From NCBI GenBank assembly GCA_038153405.1, contig JAYOYH010000005.1, positions 32,001 through 96,000 of the forward strand: DNA of 64,000 nt, written 5' to 3'. Numbering within the stretch: position 1 is the stretch's first letter; every line of letters starts with the position of its first letter. A program made the position numbers and the translations under genes. The DNA is from Gemmatimonadota bacterium. Lineage in GTDB: Bacteria; Latescibacterota; UBA2968; UBA8231. Under the pieces are notes generated by a model that had not been told where the DNA came from, did not search any database, and saw nothing but the letters and a program-made list of their open reading frames with translations. Positions 11,460 through 21,122 of the stretch are shown piece after piece.

Positions 11460-11560
11460 CTTCGTTTCGAAAAGGCAAACTACGCGAAATCGTAGGACGC
11501 GAAGGAACGGGTCCTCATCTGGCCTCTGAGCCACCTAAGGACAGCCGCACTGTCGAAGGC
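11460..11560 (+). ncRNA. Cyclic-dinucleotide riboswitch aptamer, c-di-GMP-I/GEMM-I fold (variant)
   Basis: GGCAAAC, P2 CTACG(C)-GAAA-(T)CGTAG, GACGC-GAAG, P3 CGG-GTCCT/AGGAC-AG-CCG, 3' CTGTCGAA pairing with 5' TTCG; upstream of a motility gene. Confidence 0.85.
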
Positions 11561-11606: not shown

Positions 11607-11645
11607 AAAGGCCGCACTGGTATATTTTACTCGTGCGGTTTTTTT
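11607..11645 (+). terminator. Intrinsic terminator in the riboswitch expression platform
   Basis: GGCCGCAC/GTGCGGTT stem with a T7 run (11639-11645), immediately before the fliG start. Confidence 0.8.
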
Positions 11646-11652
11646 GTTGCCG

Positions 11653-12678
11653 ATGGCCTCCGATACAGCAGAAGTTAGCGAAGAACCCGAGATTCCCCTG
11701 CGCCAGCGCGTAGCCATTGTCATGGTTGCACTCGGCTCTGACGTGGCCGGGGAGGTAATGAAACACCTCTCCGATTACGAAGTCGAGGAAATAACCCAGT
11801 CTATAGCGGCTCTCAAGAGCGTTTCCGTCGAGGTGATGGACCGCGTTCTCGAGGATTTTGAACAGCACCTGCTGGCCGGCGAGTGGATCAGCCAAGGCGG
11901 TATCGACTTTGCGCGCAGCGCCCTCGAGCGCGCGATTGGCCCGCGCAAGGCCCAGGAAATAATCGACCGCATCAGCAGCCGCGTGTCCTCTGGGTTCTAC
12001 ATGCTGCGCAACGTCTCGGCCGAACAAATTGCCCCTTTTATAAGCCACGAACACCCGCAGACCATCGCCCTCATTCTGTCGCAGTTGGACTCTGCTCAAG
12101 CTTCGGGCATCCTCTCTCAGCTTCCCGAGCGCCTGCAGGCCGGCGTGGCCTACCGCATAGCCACGATGGAAAACATTACGCCCGCCGTCCTTAAGCAGAT
12201 CGAAGAAAGCTTGGAGACATCGCTGCGCGACGTGCTGGGCGGCAATCAGGACGTCGGCGGTCCCCGCGTCATAGCCGATATACTCAACCTGACTGGTTCC
12301 TCTGTCGAAAAAAACGTCCTCGATCAGATGGACGCCATGGACCCCGAAGTGGCAGAATCGGTGCGCAACTTGATGTTCGTCTTCGCCGACATCGTAAAGT
12401 TGACCGATCGAGAAATCCAGACGCTAATGCGCGAAGTAGATCAAAAGGACCTAGTTGTCGCGCTCAAGACGGCCAGCGAAGAGCTCAAGACCAAGATCCT
12501 CGGCAATATGTCCGAGCGCGTGCGAACCTATATCACCGAGGAGATGGATTTCCTCGGACCCATGCGCGTATCCGAAGTAGAAGAAGTCCAGCTGCGCATC
12601 GTGCAGCAGGTCCGCCAGTTGGAGGAGCAGGGACAAATTACCGTTGTCCGCGGCGACTCCGACGATCAATTCGTTTAA
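11653..12678 (+). CDS. fliG: Flagellar motor switch protein FliG (no other flagellar gene in the window)
   Basis: GGIDFAR, EHPQTIALILS, MFVF (MFxF), NMSER, VEEVQLRIV motifs across full length. Confidence 0.92.
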   Translation: MASDTAEVSEEPEIPLRQRVAIVMVALGSDVAGEVMKHLSDYEVEEITQSIAALKSVSVEVMDRVLEDFEQHLLAGEWISQGGIDFARSALERAIGPRKAQEIIDRISSRVSSGFYMLRNVSAEQIAPFISHEHPQTIALILSQLDSAQASGILSQLPERLQAGVAYRIATMENITPAVLKQIEESLETSLRDVLGGNQDVGGPRVIADILNLTGSSVEKNVLDQMDAMDPEVAESVRNLMFVFADIVKLTDREIQTLMREVDQKDLVVALKTASEELKTKILGNMSERVRTYITEEMDFLGPMRVSEVEEVQLRIVQQVRQLEEQGQITVVRGDSDDQFV

Positions 12679-12773
12679 CCCCAGCAAAGGACGTCCTATG
12701 TATAGTCATGGCGCAAACCAATGCAAATCCACACTTCAACTTTTCTACCTTGCCTACGGAGGTCGTTAGCTAG

Positions 12774-14048
12774 ATGATCGAACCCCGCTCGCCCAAGCTG
12801 CTCTTCGTCCATAGCGGTTCCCCGAAGAAGCGCCTGACCTTTGTCGCCGCCAACCAACTCGGTGCCCAGGTCCACTTATTGAACCCAGAAACCAACTGGG
12901 CCTCTTCTCTCGTCCAACAAACGCACTCCACAGCCGGACTCAGCATTCCCGAAGTCGTCGCGCTCGCCGAAGACGTCCACCGTCGCGAACAGTTCGACGG
13001 CGTCGTGACCTTCTGGGAAGAAGACGTGCCGACCTGTGCGCTGATTAGCGCCCGTCTCGGCCTCCCCGGCAATGCACCGCAGGCCGCTCTGGCCGCGCGC
13101 AGCAAGTACCGCATGCGGAAAGCCTTTCAGTTGGCCGGTTTGCCGGTGCCCAAATTCCGCCGTTTTTTCGATCGCACCTCGCTGCTCGAAGCCTGCGCCG
13201 CCGTCGGCACTCCAGCCGTACTCAAACCGGAATGGGGTTCCGATAGCGAATGGGTGCTGCGCGTCGAAACGCCACAGCAAGCCCTCGAGACCTTTGAATC
13301 CATTCGCAATGAAGTGCGCATTCAAGACTGCATTTACCGCTACCGGAGCGGAACCTACGTGCTCGAAAGTCTGCTGGTCGGACCGGAAGTCAGCGTCGAA
13401 GGCGTCGTGCAAAACGGACGGGTAACCATCTATGCCATCATCGATAAGGCCAAGATGGACGATGACAGCTTTGTCGAGCGCGGCGAAACCACCCCATCGC
13501 TCTTTCCCGAAGACGTGCAGGAGCGGATTCGCACCATGGTCTGCAACGGCGTTGCCGCGCTTGAATTGGACAATTGTGGCATCCACGCGGAGATAAAAAT
13601 CACCGCCGACGGACCGCGCATTATCGAAATTGGTGCGCGCATGGGCGGCGACTGCATTCACGCGCTCGTGCTGCGCGTCTACGGCATTGATCTGGCGGTG
13701 GAAAATATACGCGCCGCACTCGGACAGCCGGTCAGTCCGGCTACGCCCGCACTCGGCTACGGCATCTCGCGCACGCTCGTTCCGGAAAAACCGGGGCTCG
13801 TGCGCCTCGAGCACAGAGGCAAACCGCGCGCCAGTCGCAATCTGATCGAAGTGGTGCTCACCAAGGGGCCCGGCGACTGCGTGGCCGTGCCGCCGCACGG
13901 CTACGACAATCTAGCTTGGATCAGCGTATGGGGGCGCAGTTACCGCGAGGCTAGTCGCCGCATAGACGCGCAAGCTGCTCGTCTGCAAAGCGCGTTTACC
14001 ATTGAGGACCAGAAGCAGACGCTCTACCACACCGAGGCCGCCGGATGA
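12774..14048 (+). CDS. ATP-grasp ligase 1 (L-amino-acid ligase-like)
   Basis: ARSKYRMR, VLKP..GS.S, GPEVSVEG, HAEIK, IEIGARMGGD. Confidence 0.88.
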   Translation: MIEPRSPKLLFVHSGSPKKRLTFVAANQLGAQVHLLNPETNWASSLVQQTHSTAGLSIPEVVALAEDVHRREQFDGVVTFWEEDVPTCALISARLGLPGNAPQAALAARSKYRMRKAFQLAGLPVPKFRRFFDRTSLLEACAAVGTPAVLKPEWGSDSEWVLRVETPQQALETFESIRNEVRIQDCIYRYRSGTYVLESLLVGPEVSVEGVVQNGRVTIYAIIDKAKMDDDSFVERGETTPSLFPEDVQERIRTMVCNGVAALELDNCGIHAEIKITADGPRIIEIGARMGGDCIHALVLRVYGIDLAVENIRAALGQPVSPATPALGYGISRTLVPEKPGLVRLEHRGKPRASRNLIEVVLTKGPGDCVAVPPHGYDNLAWISVWGRSYREASRRIDAQAARLQSAFTIEDQKQTLYHTEAAG

Positions 14049-15364
14049 AGCACCTACTCTTCGTGCACACGGCGGGTGATGCGCAGCCCTATGTAGAGCG
14101 CCTGCGCGCATTGGGCTTTCGCGCCAGTCTCATAAAGCGGTGCCCAAGTGCGGGTGATAGAGCCTGTTTCGATGCGACATTTGACATCGACTACCAAGAA
14201 GATATGGGGGCAGCGCTGGCCTGTGCAGTGGACCTGCACCAGCGCGACCCCATTGACGGCGTGCTCAGCTTTTCGGAAAGCGGCGTGCTCGGAGCCAGCT
14301 TTATCGCCGAACACCTCGGCCTGCCAGCCAATGCTCCGAAAGCCGCGCTGCGCGCGCGCAACAAATACCTCATGCGCAAAGCGCTGCGCGACGCCGGGCT
14401 GCCAACGCCTGAGTTCCATCTGGTCGACAGCGCGCAGCAGGCTCTCTCCATACTGCAAGAGCGCGACCGCCCGATGGTGCTCAAGCCCATCAGCGGCTCA
14501 TCCAGCTACGGCGTCGTACGCCTGATGCCGGAGGACGCGTTGGAAACCATCGCCGCCCACTTTGACTCGGTGCGCACCTATATTGGCACCTACCGCGAGG
14601 AAAATCCCCAGTATCCGTTCGAGTTTTGGCTGCCCGAAGCTGGGCGCGGCATTGACCAGGCCGACGTATTCGACCCGCGAGTGCACCTGCTGCTGGAGGG
14701 TTTTATTCCCGGGCAGCAGGTGAGCGTAGACGGCATTGTCAGCGAGGGGGAAGTGAGCTGCTTTGGCGTTATCGAAATCGAGCGCATCAAAGACGAGGAC
14801 TACTTTCTCGAATACGAAGAATGGATGCCGACGCACCTCGGCACGGCGCGCGAAGAGGCCATCCAAGATGCCACCGCCAGCGCCGTGCGAGCACTGGGTC
14901 TGCGCAACAGTTGTTTTCACTGCGAACTAAAAATCGACGGCGACGACATCTGCGTGCTCGAAATTGCGGCGCGGCGCGGCGCCGACAATATTGCCGATTT
15001 CCTGCACTCGCTGCACGGCATTGATATCTACGCAGAAGGGGCGCACATTGCCAGTGGACAGCATAGGCACTACCCGCGTCGGCATCCGCACGGAGCGATG
15101 AAAATGCGCTACTTTCTACCGGATAAGTCGGGCGTCATTGCCCGCATCGATGGGATCGAGGACGTCCAAAGTGACCCGCGCCTGAGCGAGTTGTGCCTCG
15201 ATTTCTCTGTCGGTGAACGCGTATTAACTCCTCCTGACGGCTTTGAGTTCTTAGGCTATATGAGCGTGTGCGCCACCGACCTTTCCGGTGCAGACGCCGC
15301 GTTAGAGTCGCTGTACCCGCGCGTCGTATTTCATATCGACACCGATTCAATCCTATCATCCTAA
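14045..15364 (+). CDS. ATP-grasp ligase 2 (L-amino-acid ligase-like)
   Basis: ARNKYLMR, VLKPISGSSSYGV, HCELK, LEIAARRGAD; ATGA overlap with upstream gene. Confidence 0.88.
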   Translation: MKHLLFVHTAGDAQPYVERLRALGFRASLIKRCPSAGDRACFDATFDIDYQEDMGAALACAVDLHQRDPIDGVLSFSESGVLGASFIAEHLGLPANAPKAALRARNKYLMRKALRDAGLPTPEFHLVDSAQQALSILQERDRPMVLKPISGSSSYGVVRLMPEDALETIAAHFDSVRTYIGTYREENPQYPFEFWLPEAGRGIDQADVFDPRVHLLLEGFIPGQQVSVDGIVSEGEVSCFGVIEIERIKDEDYFLEYEEWMPTHLGTAREEAIQDATASAVRALGLRNSCFHCELKIDGDDICVLEIAARRGADNIADFLHSLHGIDIYAEGAHIASGQHRHYPRRHPHGAMKMRYFLPDKSGVIARIDGIEDVQSDPRLSELCLDFSVGERVLTPPDGFEFLGYMSVCATDLSGADAALESLYPRVVFHIDTDSILSS

Positions 15365-15365
15365 A

Positions 15366-16628
15366 ATGGCCCATTTAAACGATCCATTGCTGGTGGTACA
15401 CCCAAGTCTGGACTATGCCAGAAGAGTGTGTAGCCACTTTCCCAACACCGTATTCATCGCGTTGCCCGCCCGTGCCAAAGAGCTGCGCATGGCGGGTTTC
15501 CGCGCGCTGGCCGCCGATCTGAACAACGGGCGTGCGGCACTGCGCAGCGCCGCCGACTACGCTCTGGCACAGCGCTTTCGCTACGCGGGTATCGCCTGCT
15601 TTGTCTGCGAATACCTGCCGCTAACCGCATTCGTCGCAGCCGGATTGGGCCTGCCACACGTCGAGGTGCAGACGGCCACACTCCTGCGCGACAAAGCGCG
15701 AAGCGGCGCGCGTTGGGCCCGTGCCGGCATACCCGTGCCCAACGCCCAACTCATCGACGACCTGAGCGAGTTAGAGGCCTTTGCATCGACCTGTCCGCCG
15801 CCTTGGATAGTAAAGCCTATAGACGCGACGGGCAGCGAATGGGTCTTGCGCATAGACGACCCGAGTCAGCTAGCCGAGGCCCACACGCGCCTTCAGCACG
15901 GCCTGCAGGGGTTACACCCTAGCGATCCGGCACCAGCCTATATAGCCCAGCGATTTATTCAGGGCCGCGAATTTGGCGTCGACTTTTTTATCGAAGGACA
16001 GCGCTTGCGCATTTTGCGCCTGTGCGAAAAGTTTCTCGTCGAAACGCCCGCACAGGCAGGCGTCGTTGGCGGCTATTACTTTCCACACCTACCACAGCGC
16101 CTGCGCCGTCAGTTGCAGGATACCCTGCGCCAGGCCGCGCGCGCGGTGGGGATGGCGCGCGGCATCGGCATGGCTGATCTCATCCTCTCTAACGATGTAT
16201 TTTACCTGCTGGAGATGGCGCCCCGTCCGGGCGGGGACTGCCTGCCCGACCTGTGCCGCGCCACCCTCAACTACGACCCCATACGCGCCGCCTGTGAAGC
16301 GGCTATCGGCGAGACTCCGCGCGCCGTTCACTGGCCTCATCCACTGCGCCCGCTGTGTGCGCTCCACCTGATGAGCGATCGCGAGGGGACCATACAGCAG
16401 ATCGACTTTTCTGCCCTGCGCGCCCACAGCAGCTTCTACAAATTCATCGAGGCCTACTGCGAACCAGGCGACGCCCTGCGCCAATGGGCTGGCAGCTACG
16501 AAGACCGCATTGTCGCTTCCTGCCTAGCCGATTGCCCCGATCCGAGCAGCCTGGCATCGCTGTGGAAAGAGCTGTCAGATGCCGTCCATATCACTTTTGC
16601 TAACAAACTGGAAACGGACCCATTATGA
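15366..16628 (+). CDS. ATP-grasp ligase 3
   Basis: RDK, IVKPIDATGSEWV, GREFGVD, LEMAPRPGGD. Confidence 0.85.
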   Translation: MAHLNDPLLVVHPSLDYARRVCSHFPNTVFIALPARAKELRMAGFRALAADLNNGRAALRSAADYALAQRFRYAGIACFVCEYLPLTAFVAAGLGLPHVEVQTATLLRDKARSGARWARAGIPVPNAQLIDDLSELEAFASTCPPPWIVKPIDATGSEWVLRIDDPSQLAEAHTRLQHGLQGLHPSDPAPAYIAQRFIQGREFGVDFFIEGQRLRILRLCEKFLVETPAQAGVVGGYYFPHLPQRLRRQLQDTLRQAARAVGMARGIGMADLILSNDVFYLLEMAPRPGGDCLPDLCRATLNYDPIRAACEAAIGETPRAVHWPHPLRPLCALHLMSDREGTIQQIDFSALRAHSSFYKFIEAYCEPGDALRQWAGSYEDRIVASCLADCPDPSSLASLWKELSDAVHITFANKLETDPL

Positions 16629-17989
16629 CTTCTTCTTCGCCCCCTCTCCGCGCCGGCCAGCTGCGCGCACTGGTCGACGAATGCCTCGAGCAGCGCGCGC
16701 AGTTTCTCGCCGCTAGCGAGGCATTCGGCACGCCGCAGTACTTAGTCGACCAGATGCGCATCGACGCGCAGGCCGCGCGCTTTCTACGCGCGTTTAGCCA
16801 CCCGCAGCAGCCCACGCGCACGCACTATGCGCTCAAATCCAACCCGTCTCTACCTGTCGTTCAGACGATTTGTCGAGCCGGACTGTGCGCCGACGCATCA
16901 TCCGGTCTCGAACTCGAGCTAGCGCTGCGCTGTGATTTCCCCCACATCGTTCTATCAGGTCCGGCCAAGAGCGACGGTGAACTCGGGCTAGCGCTCGACC
17001 ACGCGGATAGAGTCACGGTGCACTTGGACAGCTTTGCCGAGTTGAAGCGACTAGAGGCACTGGCCGCTCGGCGCCAAACCCCTATTCGCACCGGCATCCG
17101 AATCAATACGGAAGCGCACGGCAACTGGACAAAGTTCGGCATTCCCGCCGCCTCCCTAGGCGAGTTCACGGCGGCCGCCCGACAAATGGACTGGGTGCAG
17201 CTGCAGGGCATACAGTTTCATCTCAGCTGGAATCGCCAGGCCCGCGGCTACATCGAAACGCTGCGCGCGCTGGGTCCGCTGCTAGTTGCCCATCCGCCGA
17301 CAGACGGGTGGAAATTTGTCGATATAGGCGGCGGATTTTATCCCGAAGATGACGAGGCGGCCTATCCATGGCTAACCGATGACCAGCGCCTGCGCGCGCT
17401 CAGCGGTCAAGCAAACGCCGATGCACCGGCTGCCGATTGGGACTTGAGCTACTTGCTACACGCCGTGCAACCGATAGAGGACATGGCCAGCGAAGTATTT
17501 GCCGCCTTTGCCCAATTCGTCAGCTCGTCCATCGGTCCACTCGAGCTATGGCTGGAACCCGGTCGCTATATAGCGAACAAGGGCGTGCATATCCTGCTGC
17601 GGGTAGCCGATGTTAAAAGCGACGATATCGCCATCGCCGATGGGGGCACCAATTTGCTGGGCTGGGAGCGCTTGGAAAGCGAGCACTGCCCGCTGATTAA
17701 CCTTACCCACCCATCGACCCAGCAGCGGCGCTGCCGAGTCTACGGTTCGCTCTGCACGCCACACGATTTGTGGGGATATGCCTATTACGGGACGCACCTG
17801 GAGGTAGGCGATATCCTGCTATTACCGGCCCAGGGTTCCTATGTGCAAACGCTGGCACAGCGCTTTATAAAACCTGTCTGCCAAACCGTCTACTGGAGCA
17901 CTGATGGTCAATTGGAGCAGGTCGAAGCGGCCGAGAGATTAGAGGATCGCTATCCGGCTCTGCGCGACAGCGCACTGCACCCGGCCTAG
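16625..17989 (+). CDS. PLP-dependent fold-type III decarboxylase (LysA/ODC-like)
   Basis: YALKSN (PLP Lys), KFG, DIGGGF, EPGRY, GSLCTPHD, GSY. Confidence 0.9.
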   Translation: MTSSSPPLRAGQLRALVDECLEQRAQFLAASEAFGTPQYLVDQMRIDAQAARFLRAFSHPQQPTRTHYALKSNPSLPVVQTICRAGLCADASSGLELELALRCDFPHIVLSGPAKSDGELGLALDHADRVTVHLDSFAELKRLEALAARRQTPIRTGIRINTEAHGNWTKFGIPAASLGEFTAAARQMDWVQLQGIQFHLSWNRQARGYIETLRALGPLLVAHPPTDGWKFVDIGGGFYPEDDEAAYPWLTDDQRLRALSGQANADAPAADWDLSYLLHAVQPIEDMASEVFAAFAQFVSSSIGPLELWLEPGRYIANKGVHILLRVADVKSDDIAIADGGTNLLGWERLESEHCPLINLTHPSTQQRRCRVYGSLCTPHDLWGYAYYGTHLEVGDILLLPAQGSYVQTLAQRFIKPVCQTVYWSTDGQLEQVEAAERLEDRYPALRDSALHPA

Positions 17990-18007
17990 CCGACCTACGC
18001 CCGCGCC

Positions 18008-19468
18008 GTGCAGATCGAACCACTGGACCAATTTATCGTAGCGCTCTACGCGCTGGCCATGCTCGGGGTCGGCTTTTATCTGCGCGGTAGGATATCGACC
18101 TTTGACCAGTTTAGCATGGCCGACCGCCAGCTGTCGGCACCGCTGCTCTTGTGCACGCTGGTATCTACCTACTATGGCCTCGGCGTCCTGCTGGCTGGCT
18201 CGGAAATCAGCTATGAAAGCGGCGTGGTCAACTTCTTTTTCGATACGGGACCGGCCTATATCGCCCTGATCGTAGCGGCGCTACTTTTGGCCCCGCGCCT
18301 GCAGGGCCGCTCCTTTCGCTCCATACCGGATATCGTGGGAGCGCGCTTTGGCCTCGGCGCCCAAATATGCGCCGCGCTCTCCTGCTTTATTTATGCGCTG
18401 CCCGCCTTTTCCATCATGGGCTTGGGCGGTCTGCTGCACCTGCTCTTCGGCTTGCCTTTTTACTGGGGTTTAGTGCTGGGCAGCGCCTTTGCTCTCACTT
18501 ATACGGCACTGGGCGGCCTGCTAGCCGTCGCGCTGACCGATGCTGCCCAGTTCGCCCTCATGGCGACGACGCTGGCCCTAGTCGCCTTTCTCGGGCTACC
18601 CGACCTAGGCGGAGTGGCAGCGCTCGAACAGGCGCTGCCAACGCACTTTGAACCATCTGGCGGACGTCCCATCGCCCTGCTCTTCGTCTACGGTCTCACC
18701 TCGCTGAGCATTCTCGTCGAGCCGGCCTTTTACCAGCGCATCTTCGCCGCGCGCGACCAGCGCACAATCGTCATGGCCATGCTCGTCGGCGTGGTATTTT
18801 GGATGTCGTACGACTGGATCGTCACCGTGCTGGGCATCGCCGCACGCGCGGCCGTGCTGGGTGGCTATATGCCCGAACCGCCGACGCCCGATCAGGCTGT
18901 TATACACTTTGCCATACGCGTATTGCCCAGCGGCCTCATAGGCATATTTGCCGCCGGCGTCGTCGCTGCCGCCATGTCGACCGTCGACAGCTATCTCCTC
19001 GTTTCTGCCAGCACGTTGGTCTACGACATCTGGCATCCGCTCGGCGGCAGGCACATGGACGATGCGCAACTCGTGCGGCGCACCCGCTGGACGATGTTAT
19101 TGACCACCGCTGCAACGATCCTGCTCTGCCTCTACTTCAGCAATGTCGAACGCCTGTGGATCTTTATCACCGCCGTGCTGATATGCACCAGTATGATTCC
19201 CGTGCTGAGCGCCCTGTTCTGGCCGAGCGTGCAGCGCCGCGCTGGATGCCTGGCAACCTATGTCGGCTTTTCTTCGGTGCTTGCATTCTACACCTGGATC
19301 GATCTATGCGGCCAATGGGTCGAAGAAGAAGCGACCTACATTTGGACGGGCGCAATTTTCGACCATTCGTGGACAATTAACCAAGACTACGGCATACTCT
19401 ATATCCTGCCGCTGGTCATTGTCGTCTTTGCCGTCTCCCACCTATTTCCCGAGCGCAGCGCATCGTGA
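18008..19468 (+). CDS. Sodium:solute symporter (SSS) family transporter
   Basis: Many TM segments, YTALGGLLAVALTD, YQRIFAA, AAAMSTVDS. Confidence 0.92.
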   Translation: MQIEPLDQFIVALYALAMLGVGFYLRGRISTFDQFSMADRQLSAPLLLCTLVSTYYGLGVLLAGSEISYESGVVNFFFDTGPAYIALIVAALLLAPRLQGRSFRSIPDIVGARFGLGAQICAALSCFIYALPAFSIMGLGGLLHLLFGLPFYWGLVLGSAFALTYTALGGLLAVALTDAAQFALMATTLALVAFLGLPDLGGVAALEQALPTHFEPSGGRPIALLFVYGLTSLSILVEPAFYQRIFAARDQRTIVMAMLVGVVFWMSYDWIVTVLGIAARAAVLGGYMPEPPTPDQAVIHFAIRVLPSGLIGIFAAGVVAAAMSTVDSYLLVSASTLVYDIWHPLGGRHMDDAQLVRRTRWTMLLTTAATILLCLYFSNVERLWIFITAVLICTSMIPVLSALFWPSVQRRAGCLATYVGFSSVLAFYTWIDLCGQWVEEEATYIWTGAIFDHSWTINQDYGILYILPLVIVVFAVSHLFPERSAS

Positions 19469-19600
19469 CGATATACGCTCTCGCTACCTGGGTCGCGCAG
19501 TCGGTGCTGGCTATTGGCAGTCTACTAGCCCTCTACCTGCTCGTGCGCTCACGTCGCTAGCCCACTCGCCCACCGGCACGAATGCCCCTATATTTCAGCC

Positions 19601-20155
19601 ATGTTTAGGCTGACAACGGCACCCGCGCTCTGCCTGCGCCTGCTCGATGGCCACGAGGCGCGGGCACTCTTTGCCCTCACGGAGAAAAACCGCTCCTACC
19701 TGCGGCGCTGGCTGCCCTGGCTCGACGCCAATACCAGCGCCGACGATACCCGGCGTTTTGTCGAGGGCACGCGCGAGCGCTACGCTAACCGCGAAGCGTT
19801 AGAAGCAGGTCTTTTTCACGCAGACATGCTCGTCGGCATGGTGGGATTTAACACGATCGATTGGTCGGCGCGCCGCGCAGAAATAGGCTATTGGCTCGAT
19901 GCCAACAGCCAGGGCCAAGGCCTGATTACGCGGGCCTGCAGCGCGCTGATTGAGCACGGCTTTGTCGCATATGATTTAAATCGCGTGGAGATACGATGTG
20001 CCACCGGCAACGCGCGCAGTCGCGCCGTGCCCGAGCGCTTGGGCTTTGTCTGCGAAGGCGTCATGCGCCAAGTCGAATGGCTGTACGACCACTTCGAGGA
20101 CCACGCCCTCTACGCGCTGCTGCGCCCCGACTGGCAAGTTCGGCAACCGACTTAG
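19601..20155 (+). CDS. GNAT N-acetyltransferase, RimJ/RimL family
   Basis: WLPW, AEIGYWL..QGQG, NRVEIRC..N.RSRAVPERLGF.EG. Confidence 0.9.
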   Translation: MFRLTTAPALCLRLLDGHEARALFALTEKNRSYLRRWLPWLDANTSADDTRRFVEGTRERYANREALEAGLFHADMLVGMVGFNTIDWSARRAEIGYWLDANSQGQGLITRACSALIEHGFVAYDLNRVEIRCATGNARSRAVPERLGFVCEGVMRQVEWLYDHFEDHALYALLRPDWQVRQPT

Positions 20156-20171
20156 CGGCGCCCCGATTGCG

Positions 20172-21122
20172 CTAGGCGGTCTCGATAAAGCGCAGCGCCC
20201 GCTCTTCCATCCAACACCTGCCGCCCGCCTGGGGAAAGCCGACGTGGCCGCCGCACTCAGGCATTTCCAGCAGCACTTGTTTTAGCGGTCGCACCGCGTC
20301 GCGCGGATAACACTTCTCCCCCAAAAACGTATCGTTGCGGGCATTGGCGATGAGCGCAGGCAAGCGAATAGCGCTCAAATAGCTCAAACAACTCGTAGCG
20401 CGCCAGTACTCTTCGGGCGATGCATAACCGTGAATTGGCGCCGTGTAGCGACCGTCAAATGCGTAGAGGTCGCGTAGCTGTTCAACACCCTCTGCATCGA
20501 TAAGCCCTGGTCGCACCGCGGCCTTATCGCGCACTTTGGCGTGTAGGCGGCGCATAAAGCGCTGCAGGTAGAGCCTGTTGCGCCAGCGATGAATGGCGCG
20601 TGCGCCGTCGACTAAGTCGCAGGGAACGGAAAAGGTCGCCGCCGCGCAGAGTTCGCTCGGCGCACCTGCACCGCACTCGCCCAAATACTTAAGAATCAGG
20701 TTGCCGCCGAGGCTGAAGCCAACTAGCGCGATGCGCTCGTAGCGCCCCGACGCACGCACATGCGCTATCACCGCTGCTATATCCTGCGTCAACCCGGCGT
20801 GATAGAAGCCGGCGGTGCGATTGGGTTCCCCGCTGCACGCGCGCATATTCCACGCCACCGCATCCCATCCAGCCGCATTGAACGCGCGCACCATCGCCAG
20901 CATATAGGGCCGGCGCGAGTGACCCTCCATTCCGTGCGCAACGACTACCAGTCGCCCACGGTCTACCGGCGACCAGTCGATATCGACAAAATCACCATCG
21001 TCTAACTCGACGCGCTCGCGCCTGTAGATGACCCCGTCAATGCGGCGCAGGTGCGGCGCAACAGTCTGCAGGTCTGCGCCGAGCAAATACCAGGGCGGTC
21101 GATAGGATGAGTTCATTATCAT
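20172..21122 (-). CDS. Alpha/beta hydrolase, YheT family
   Basis: HGMEG, GFSLGGN, D and GGHVGF catalytic motifs. Confidence 0.9.
   Translation of the reverse strand: MIMNSSYRPPWYLLGADLQTVAPHLRRIDGVIYRRERVELDDGDFVDIDWSPVDRGRLVVVAHGMEGHSRRPYMLAMVRAFNAAGWDAVAWNMRACSGEPNRTAGFYHAGLTQDIAAVIAHVRASGRYERIALVGFSLGGNLILKYLGECGAGAPSELCAAATFSVPCDLVDGARAIHRWRNRLYLQRFMRRLHAKVRDKAAVRPGLIDAEGVEQLRDLYAFDGRYTAPIHGYASPEEYWRATSCLSYLSAIRLPALIANARNDTFLGEKCYPRDAVRPLKQVLLEMPECGGHVGFPQAGGRCWMEERALRFIETA

Follow-up and report, generated by a model that had tools for sequence, protein, structure and literature searches.

In a 64,000-nucleotide stretch of DNA from a Gemmatimonadota bacterium (assembly GCA_038153405.1, contig JAYOYH010000005.1, positions 32,001 to 96,000; Latescibacterota in the GTDB lineage), hereafter the window, genes for three ATP-grasp ligases (ligases 1 to 3, numbered 5′ to 3′) and a pyridoxal phosphate (PLP)-dependent decarboxylase form an operon that is followed by a gene for a sodium:solute symporter (SSS). 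We found that this operon is real, conserved and undescribed, and that it is a variant of known ligate-then-decarboxylate chemistry; neither this three-ligase form nor a wider form introduced below was found described in the literature, most subscription papers being outside the search. The reading we prefer, to which comparisons of sequence lend roughly even confidence, is that the operon makes an amino-acid conjugate of putrescine by the action of ligase 3, the decarboxylase, and ligases 1 and 2. A preliminary description of this DNA had proposed an amide-forming operon independent of non-ribosomal peptide synthetases (NRPSs) with a decarboxylase other than LysA. That core of the proposal is supported here, and its six genes (these five and a GNAT gene), with their lengths, junctions and quoted motifs, were all verified in the window sequence. 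It had missed an upstream peptide gene, a riboswitch, a small partner of the SSS transporter, the link to putrescine and the ligase 3-decarboxylase core that is shared with the wider form.

The junctions from ligase 1 through the SSS gene are −4, +1, −4 and +18 nt, and pairwise identity among the three ligases is 23-34%. The families named in the preliminary description agree with Pfam and NCBIfam: ATP-grasp_4 is present in ligases 1-3, ATPgrasp_N and LAL_C2 in ligases 1 and 2, Orn_Arg_deC_N in the decarboxylase, SSF in the SSS transporter and Acetyltransf_3 in the GNAT. The motifs EIGAR and EIAAR (reported earlier as ExGxR and ExAxR), EMAPR, ALKSN, FHLSW, DIGGG, EPGR and SLCTP are all found in the sequence, and neither the ligases nor the decarboxylase score above the cut-off of any curated family.

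A single-protein search of genome contigs recovered only two true relatives. A family profile built from 36 decarboxylases, applied at E ≤ 1e-60 to 168 genomes of the phylum (probably Latescibacterota), placed the decarboxylase family in 16 of them, from six genera and two families. Here G and L labels denote genomes and loci compared in the analysis, G000 being the genome of the window. The pool of 96 loci, which includes some near-duplicates, comprises the window, 15 loci from genomes and 80 from metagenomes, the latter being the best 80 of the 521 that were confirmed when 600 were scanned. The decarboxylase is at least 55% identical in 27 loci, 20 of which have sufficient upstream DNA, and in all 20 the order ligase 1-ligase 2-ligase 3-decarboxylase is intact. 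The preliminary description had called for a check of conserved synteny; since the same four-gene order recurs in every one of these loci, the observed arrangement is not due to chance. The gene 3′ of the decarboxylase is variable and may be SSS, an amidohydrolase or an unrelated gene. Homologues carrying the name Omnitrophica (decarboxylase 45%, ligase 1 47%; P0057, P0178) suggest that the three-ligase form also occurs beyond this phylum.

The remaining 69 loci have a decarboxylase 36-45% identical and another front end. Among those with 3 kb of upstream DNA, a single ATP-grasp gene and an Acetyltransf_6 GNAT, a putative tRNA-type transferase, are present in 40/40 and a SpeD-like gene, often preceded by a TetR or sigma-54 activator gene, in 34/40; neither SpeDC nor GNAT_6 is found in any of the 20 three-ligase loci. 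The single ligase of the wider form is 27-34% identical to ligase 3, and in a quick tree of 34 rows ligase 3 and these distant ligases separate from ligases 1 and 2 with an SH-aLRT support of 100. We assign the wider-form ligase as the orthologue of ligase 3 and read ligase 3 plus the decarboxylase as the constant core across both operon forms. Given this orthology and the fixed order, ligases 1 and 2 stand where SpeDC and GNAT_6 stand in the wider form. Two in-frame fusions each join an upstream amide-forming enzyme to ligase 3 in a single chain: a ligase 2-ligase 3 fusion of 932 aa (L044 and L123, which are the same contig; L044:7137-9935) and, in the wider form, a GNAT_6-ligase fusion of 756 aa (L050:7665-9935). 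In L075 and L076, a fusion of a GNAT with an acetylpolyamine-amidohydrolase-like protein (577 aa) lies just upstream of the wider form's TetR gene.

The link to putrescine comes from the SpeD-like gene. When its product was compared with the SpeD2 domain of D. phosphitoxidans, 52 of 79 columns were identical, counted by eye against the figure available to us (Fig. S5, PMC10407285), and the available text of that paper states that this domain was shown to decarboxylate L-ornithine. The diagnostic pattern Q/T/F/Y is present in 35/35 SpeD-like copies, with residue placement taken from our alignment to the same figure. We assign the protein as SpeDC, a predicted ornithine decarboxylase that makes putrescine, and because the shared core adjoins SpeDC in the wider form, this core sits beside a putrescine source.

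All three ligases are distant from characterized enzymes. Ligase 1 keeps the HxE motif as in BacD, its best solved relatives being BL00235 and BacD (E 1e-19 to 6e-18), and ligase 2 keeps it as HCE; both have the full L-amino-acid-ligase domain set and the catalytic E-x3-R. Ligase 3 has only ATP-grasp_3 and ATP-grasp_4, matched only generic ATP-grasp clusters in the ESM Atlas, and, like its distant orthologues, aligns M-x-D where BacD and BL00235 have HxE. The His and Glu of this motif in BacD presumably bind the alpha-amine of the substrate. The equivalog cut-offs for BacD and DdaF were missed by all three, the highest scores being 72 of 850 and 42 of 840 bits. In addition, each ligase has Asp at the position of the BacD pocket residue Trp332, the numbering being our reading of the alignment; such a residue would suit a cationic substrate.

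The decarboxylase is a distinct family of the type III (alanine-racemase) fold. The PLP lysine (K71), the glycine loop (G235-G237), EPGR (E311-R314) and the catalytic Cys (C377) are invariant in the 36 sequences, and its own traits are HxSW, GSLCTPxD and an insertion after DIGGG. The HLSW motif and this insertion, both noted in the preliminary description, are present, and the alignment puts the post-DIGGG stretch at ~30 residues longer than in M. jannaschii LysA. With the AlphaFold model (pLDDT 92.6), Foldseek matched LysA, DokD, FslC and BtrK at TM 0.70-0.77 and 16-22% identity, none closer than the others; because these four match about equally, the structure does not name the substrate.

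Several results bear on the earlier proposal that this enzyme is not the housekeeping LysA. Against TIGR01048 (LysA) it scores 130 of 298 bits, under the cut-off. HxSW is present in 96/96 homologues, and HLSW and CTPHD stand here where relatives' LysA proteins have HxGS and CESGD. It is nevertheless the sole LysA-like decarboxylase found in this 93%-complete genome, which could mean that it serves as the genome's LysA, or that the operon replaces spermidine synthesis. Three other weak decarboxylase-like matches in the genome lack the motifs and resemble D-threonine-aldolase-type proteins. We consider this housekeeping explanation extremely unlikely. A second LysA-like gene is present in all five operon-bearing relatives examined, the four that were read each having HxGS and CESGD. 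The gene that stands upstream of lysA in relatives matches the final 350 bases of contig C88 here, so that this genome's housekeeping lysA was probably lost where the assembly breaks off after C88; the idea that the operon enzyme is the sole LysA was rejected on these grounds. Furthermore, the family without LysA motifs is patchy (16/168 genomes), and G100 has the operon plus a fused SpeD-SpeE gene. Taken together, these results demonstrate that the decarboxylase is distinct from LysA.

Type III decarboxylases require a free alpha-amino acid end, so a conjugate that is to be decarboxylated must be joined through its side chain. It has been previously reported, in the available text of two papers, that BtrJ/BtrK and CtaD/CtaF ligate Glu or Asp via the side chain and then decarboxylate it (PMC7183216; PMC11350588). 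No carrier-like open reading frame (ORF) was found in any of the 96 loci by a crude filter on size, charge and DSL motif, which bears on linked carriers. The side-chain precedent, M-x-D for HxE in ligase 3 and this lack of a carrier led us to a model of ligation, decarboxylation and extension. Putrescine would be brought in by the SSS transporter in this genome; ligase 3 would join Asp or Glu to it through the side-chain carboxyl; the decarboxylase would strip the alpha-carboxyl that is still free, yielding a beta-alanyl or 4-aminobutyryl (GABA) amide; and ligases 1 and 2, in place of GNAT_6, would then add alpha-amino acids. The route would involve neither an NRPS nor a carrier protein. We infer both the substrates and the order of the steps, whereas the genes and their order are observed directly.

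The transporter ties in with this model. Orthologues of the SSS gene (at least 63% identical) occur in 4 of the 168 genomes, all operon bearers, in one of which the gene is unlinked from the operon. A small ORF encoding one membrane helix follows SSS in 4/4 linked loci and also follows the unlinked SSS of G016; the 31-codon ORF in the window is likely the small partner of the transporter. As markers of the arginine-to-putrescine route we used PF01862, PF00491 and PF04371 (arginine decarboxylase, arginase family and agmatine deiminase), which were detected in 9 of the 16 operon genomes. Of the 7 operon genomes in which no route marker was detected, 4 have an intact SSS gene, against none of the 9 that carry a marker (nominal Fisher p 0.019, which overstates the association because the genomes are kin, not independent, and incomplete). 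The same contrast is seen within one genus, in which G100 has the route and lacks SSS and G101 shows the reverse. This genome yielded no match above cut-off for the arginase family, agmatine deiminase, pyruvoyl arginine decarboxylase or fold-I decarboxylases. The earlier suggestion of a dedicated importer is thus supported by orthologues confined to operon bearers and intact only where no putrescine route was detected, and its predicted cargo in this genome is probably a diamine precursor, putrescine. In addition, the gene directly 3′ of the decarboxylase in 7 of the 16 genomes, from three genera, encodes an acetylpolyamine-amidohydrolase-like protein, whose best solved matches have E 2e-80 to 2e-68. 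Although it yielded no putrescine route, the genome of the window also holds a stand-alone SpeD with the Pro that marks a true S-adenosylmethionine decarboxylase, and a membrane-bound protein of 520 aa that resembles spermidine synthase (G000:C24:61686-62003 and C49:3736-4272; L127, L131).

A number of observations weigh against the putrescine conjugate. Characterized proteins come no closer than ~22% identity for the decarboxylase or E 1e-19 for the ligases. A putrescine-making gene is present in none of the three-ligase loci, so that putrescine is deduced from orthology and co-occurrence. BtrJ and CtaD act on carrier proteins, and CtaF refuses free Asp, according to the portions available of the two reports (PMC7183216, PMC11350588). 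The transporter association is drawn from 16 related metagenome-assembled genomes, 76-98% complete and from six genera, and the arginase family is a loose marker of the route. In G001 the operon is intact though SSS is deleted after ~45 codons, and no route marker was found; the deletion (C32 start/C13 end; L021, L155) also removes the small partner and leaves the four enzymes intact. G157 and G161 (86% and 76% complete) have neither SSS nor a route marker. The amidohydrolase family is common (51/168 genomes), no member turned up in this genome, and, as an older GNAT-amidohydrolase pair exists at the locus, the linkage may reflect synteny by inheritance.

Some of the same evidence could be accounted for if the ligases acylated the side-chain amine of an ornithine- or lysine-like diamino acid, which the decarboxylase would turn into an acyl-diamine by the logic of FslC and SbnH; free putrescine would then be unneeded, and the SSS transporter would import the amino acid or recapture the product. 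Both FslC and SbnH are among the solved relatives of the decarboxylase, and SpeDC is missing from 20/20 three-ligase loci. We think this alternative unlikely, as orthologous ligase 3 and decarboxylase genes accompany SpeDC in 34/40 distant loci, SSS tracks the absence of putrescine routes, and NRPS-independent siderophore (NIS) synthetases, hydroxylases and TonB receptors do not recur when the neighbourhoods are clustered. The last result also concerns the metallophore that had been listed among the possible products: no IucA/IucC synthetase, hydroxylase or TonB receptor is among the recurring neighbours (14 representatives scanned with Pfam), and nothing points to such a product.

The GNAT gene at the 3′ end had been counted as part of the pathway, a view that is not supported. 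It is found in 14 of the 168 genomes, 9 of them without the operon. In the operon-less G020 and G123, the order of amidohydrolase, creatininase-like gene, GNATs and acetylpolyamine amidohydrolase reproduces the flanks of the window's locus, and the flank in G123 includes the same hydrolase that ends this locus. The GNAT lies directly upstream of the acetylpolyamine-amidohydrolase-like gene in five operon-less genomes, and directly 3′ of the decarboxylase in one metagenome contig (L035). Because the gene occupies the same flanked locus in operon-less relatives, it is probably a resident gene, and we rejected it as an unlikely core member. The GNAT-acetylpolyamine amidohydrolase pair of operon-less genomes (G020:C67, G123:C180 and G011:C536; L151, L152, L154), with a second GNAT in two of them, lies between the flanking genes that the window's locus has and may constitute a polyamine acetylation cycle.

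Table 1. Features of the operon and its surroundings, in window coordinates.
Feature	Position	Strand	Basis
Riboswitch aptamer, variant of the cyclic di-GMP-I (c-di-GMP-I) clan	11465..11558	+	RF03167/RF01051 covariance matches
Orphan fliG paralogue	11644..12678	+	TIGR00207 above cut-off
Upstream peptide gene, 23 codons, MYSHGANQCKSTLQLFYLAYGGR	12698..12769	+	Shine-Dalgarno-led ORF, conserved ending
Ligase 1, L-amino-acid-ligase-type ATP-grasp, 424 aa	12774..14048	+	Pfam; BL00235/BacD relatives
Ligase 2, L-amino-acid-ligase-type ATP-grasp (HCE), 439 aa	14045..15364	+	Pfam, alignment
Ligase 3, divergent ATP-grasp (MAD replaces HxE), 420 aa	15366..16628	+	Tree, alignment to BL00235
PLP decarboxylase, alanine-racemase-fold (type III), distinct family, 454 aa	16625..17989	+	Motifs, fold
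Sodium:solute symporter (SSS), 486 aa	18008..19468	+	Pfam SSF; co-occurrence
One-membrane-helix ORF, 31 codons, overlaps SSS stop	19465..19560	+	Recurs behind SSS
RimL/SpeG-like GNAT, 184 aa, doubtful member	19601..20155	+	Acetyltransf_3

Upstream of the enzyme genes we found an RNA aptamer that scores 45.7 bits against RF01051, above the gathering score of 35, and 53.7 bits against RF03167 (gathering 59; E 2e-11). It shares the fold and most conserved letters of these families; at the three positions for which RF03167 specifies G, G and C, its letters are G (11474), G (11501) and U (11553), and the U at the 3′ contact position is seen in 8 of 9 aligned copies. We take these three positions to be ligand contacts. 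The available part of one report contains a passage on a G20A/C92U mutant that partly backs such a role (PMC7288161), and riboswitch variants with a changed ligand are known from the literature excerpts consulted. In the nine copies, 92% of stem cells are paired, compared to 30-46% when the alignment is slid, and three pairs have changed on both sides; as 28 of 500 shuffles reach the observed pairing, the covariation evidence is modest. In G002 and G100 the aptamer is the only RF01051 match among 150 candidates scored in each.

With no fliG in between, the aptamer immediately precedes the peptide gene and ligase 1 in L115, L116, L038, L043 and L025 (from two g28 genomes, a metagenome contig like them, and G016 and the metagenome contig L043, whose copies are degenerate), which places the riboswitch with the operon; searches of the remaining genera and of the distant operon form gave none. 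The fliG paralogue that splits the riboswitch from the peptide gene in G000, G001 and G002 is absent there in other genera and is a passenger seen only in these three genomes of the genus. The genome of the window has four full-length fliG paralogues (C69, C29 and C43 included), 42-83% identical to that of the window, and no flagellar genes were seen within 2.5 kb of the three that were checked.

It has been reported, in the available part of PMC7266159, that the c-di-GMP-I clan controls motility and biofilm genes. Together with fliG in the same leader and the lack of a conserved exporter in the three-ligase loci, this is compatible with an amine-bearing substituent being placed on a surface polymer, lipid or protein in preference to a free small molecule. 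We regard this as quite unlikely, for glycosyltransferases, acyltransferases and membrane transferases are not among the genes that recur next to the core. Another copy of the riboswitch variant (G000:C21:19215-19315) precedes a SAM-dependent methyltransferase gene at 19405-20187 (L144, L146). Homologues of this methyltransferase occur in 5 of the 168 genomes, all operon bearers and four at ≥56% identity, and the riboswitch precedes the gene in this genome only; the enzyme is a candidate accessory tailoring enzyme.

A few bases before ligase 1, all 19 loci with upstream DNA have a Shine-Dalgarno-led ORF of 22-25 codons that ends in [YF]GG[RHL]-stop (21 loci tried, 17 distinct sequences); as a control, such an ORF precedes 10 of 954 long ORFs of this genome. 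Changes are biased to third codon positions in 3 of 4 groups (79 versus 21 at second positions in g13), the exception being the genus of the window. The Gly-Gly codons double as the Shine-Dalgarno sequence of ligase 1, which explains their conservation. Neither the PDB nor NCBIfam gave a relevant match up to E 10, so short a query being a weak one, and a suspected likeness to SpeFL found no support there. A hairpin hiding the Shine-Dalgarno sequence was considered as the reason for the conserved ending and discarded: in none of the 17 sequences did it exceed shuffled controls (best case 6 of 60 shuffles as high). In genus g13 and related metagenome loci (L039, L041, L042, L122), the peptide gene is preceded by another conserved element, in which GGAGGA/TCCTCC forms a hairpin and the word AGGGATG recurs; L039 was scanned and gave no Rfam match at gathering, and the element is possibly an unrecognized RNA motif.

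Because the peptide accompanies 19/19 loci with a conserved aromatic C-terminus, it could itself be the substrate or scaffold, as in a peptide made by ribosomes and modified after translation (RiPP) or a peptide carrier, which the ligases would extend or cap and on which the decarboxylase would tailor the added residue. Only the form with ligases 1 and 2 shows it, the crude motif filter revealed no other carrier in the 96 loci, and the best match of the riboswitch-led methyltransferase is a daptide RiPP methyltransferase (E 4e-12, far below the cut-off). However, the Shine-Dalgarno sequence of ligase 1 accounts for the invariant Gly-Gly, variation is seen at the N-terminus and at the final residue (R/H/L), no protease is conserved in the three-ligase loci, and the wider form has this core but no such peptide; before its SpeDC, no counterpart with a shared motif was found. 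A substrate role therefore seems rather unlikely, and the peptide is likely a leader or coupling peptide. The riboswitch and the translation of this peptide probably both control expression of the operon.

A sigma-70 scan gave 4 promoter-like sites (3.5 expected) and no convincing terminator. DNA nearly identical to that of the window is present in estuary and seawater metagenomes (20 runs, 9 studies), and two estuary metatranscriptomes from one study yielded contigs over parts of fliG, ligase 1, the decarboxylase and SSS; the flanking bins have no depth, and strand, level and a silent control are lacking, so these contigs were not counted as evidence of expression.

The operon offers a compact, testable pathway of four soluble enzymes with cheap substrates in an uncultured phylum. 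It is linked to a much wider orphan operon of anaerobic bacteria, such that one in vitro result would name both, and the exchange of SpeDC and GNAT for two ligases and an importer is a natural experiment on the role of each gene. Two further leads stand apart from the pathway: the riboswitch variant may represent a new ligand specificity within the c-di-GMP-I clan, and the upstream peptide may be a new bacterial leader peptide in polyamine metabolism. More speculatively, and with clear doubt on our part, the locus may combine a carrier-free route to a new class of peptidyl polyamine amides, two ATP-grasp ligases that replace a tRNA-type transferase, a G/G/U riboswitch with changed cyclic-dinucleotide specificity, and a polyamine- or ornithine-sensing leader peptide or peptide scaffold. 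The peptidyl polyamine amides so envisaged, just as tentatively, would be amide analogues of spermidine or homospermidine that carry a two-amino-acid cap and are sometimes methylated.

Among the closest known systems is the uncharacterized SpeDC-GNAT-ATP-grasp-decarboxylase operon, which has orthologous ligase 3 and decarboxylase genes in the same order. Unlike that operon, the one described here has ligases 1 and 2 in place of SpeDC and GNAT_6, and the peptide gene, riboswitch and dedicated SSS of the three-ligase form were not found in the SpeDC-GNAT loci. In the solved L-amino-acid ligases BacD and BL00235 (PDB 3vmm, 3wo1, 3vot), the fold, ATPgrasp_N/ATP-grasp_4/LAL_C2, HxE and E-x3-R are common to ligases 1 and 2; the scores are, however, far under the BacD cut-off (72 and 39 of 850 bits), Asp replaces Trp332, and ligase 3 lacks the His of HxE. 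A conserved uncharacterized cluster on Streptomyces plasmids of culturable hosts (L139-L141; NZ_CP098484, NZ_CP108162, NZ_CP108443) combines a 2-oxoglutarate/Fe dioxygenase, a methyltransferase, a type III decarboxylase (27%), an MFS transporter, an ATP-grasp enzyme (32% to ligase 1) and a GNAT; lacking HxSW and CTPxD, these clusters were rejected as members and treated as analogues.

FslC (rhizoferrin) and SbnH (staphyloferrin B) are likewise decarboxylases of type III that serve pathways forming amides. They work alongside NIS synthetases and citrate chemistry, nothing of which kind recurs here, and reportedly act on a pre-ligated conjugate. The phevamine A pathway (HsvA/HsvB/HsvC) is alike by description: according to the available text, two ATP-grasp ligases assemble the compound by loading amino acids stepwise on a polyamine without an NRPS, but the pathway has an amidinotransferase and no decarboxylase, and its acceptor is amidinospermidine (PMC6187163). 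Finally, BtrJ/BtrK and CtaD/CtaF resemble the operon in that an ATP-grasp gene adjoins that of a type III decarboxylase (20/20 and 40/40 loci in the two forms here), and BtrK is a structural relative of the decarboxylase (TM 0.71-0.73, 21% identity) with, likewise, a role other than that of LysA. These systems, as far as the available parts of the reports go, work on a phosphopantetheinyl carrier, for which the 96 loci gave no counterpart by the crude motif, whereas the operon described here has three ligases and a link to a diamine.

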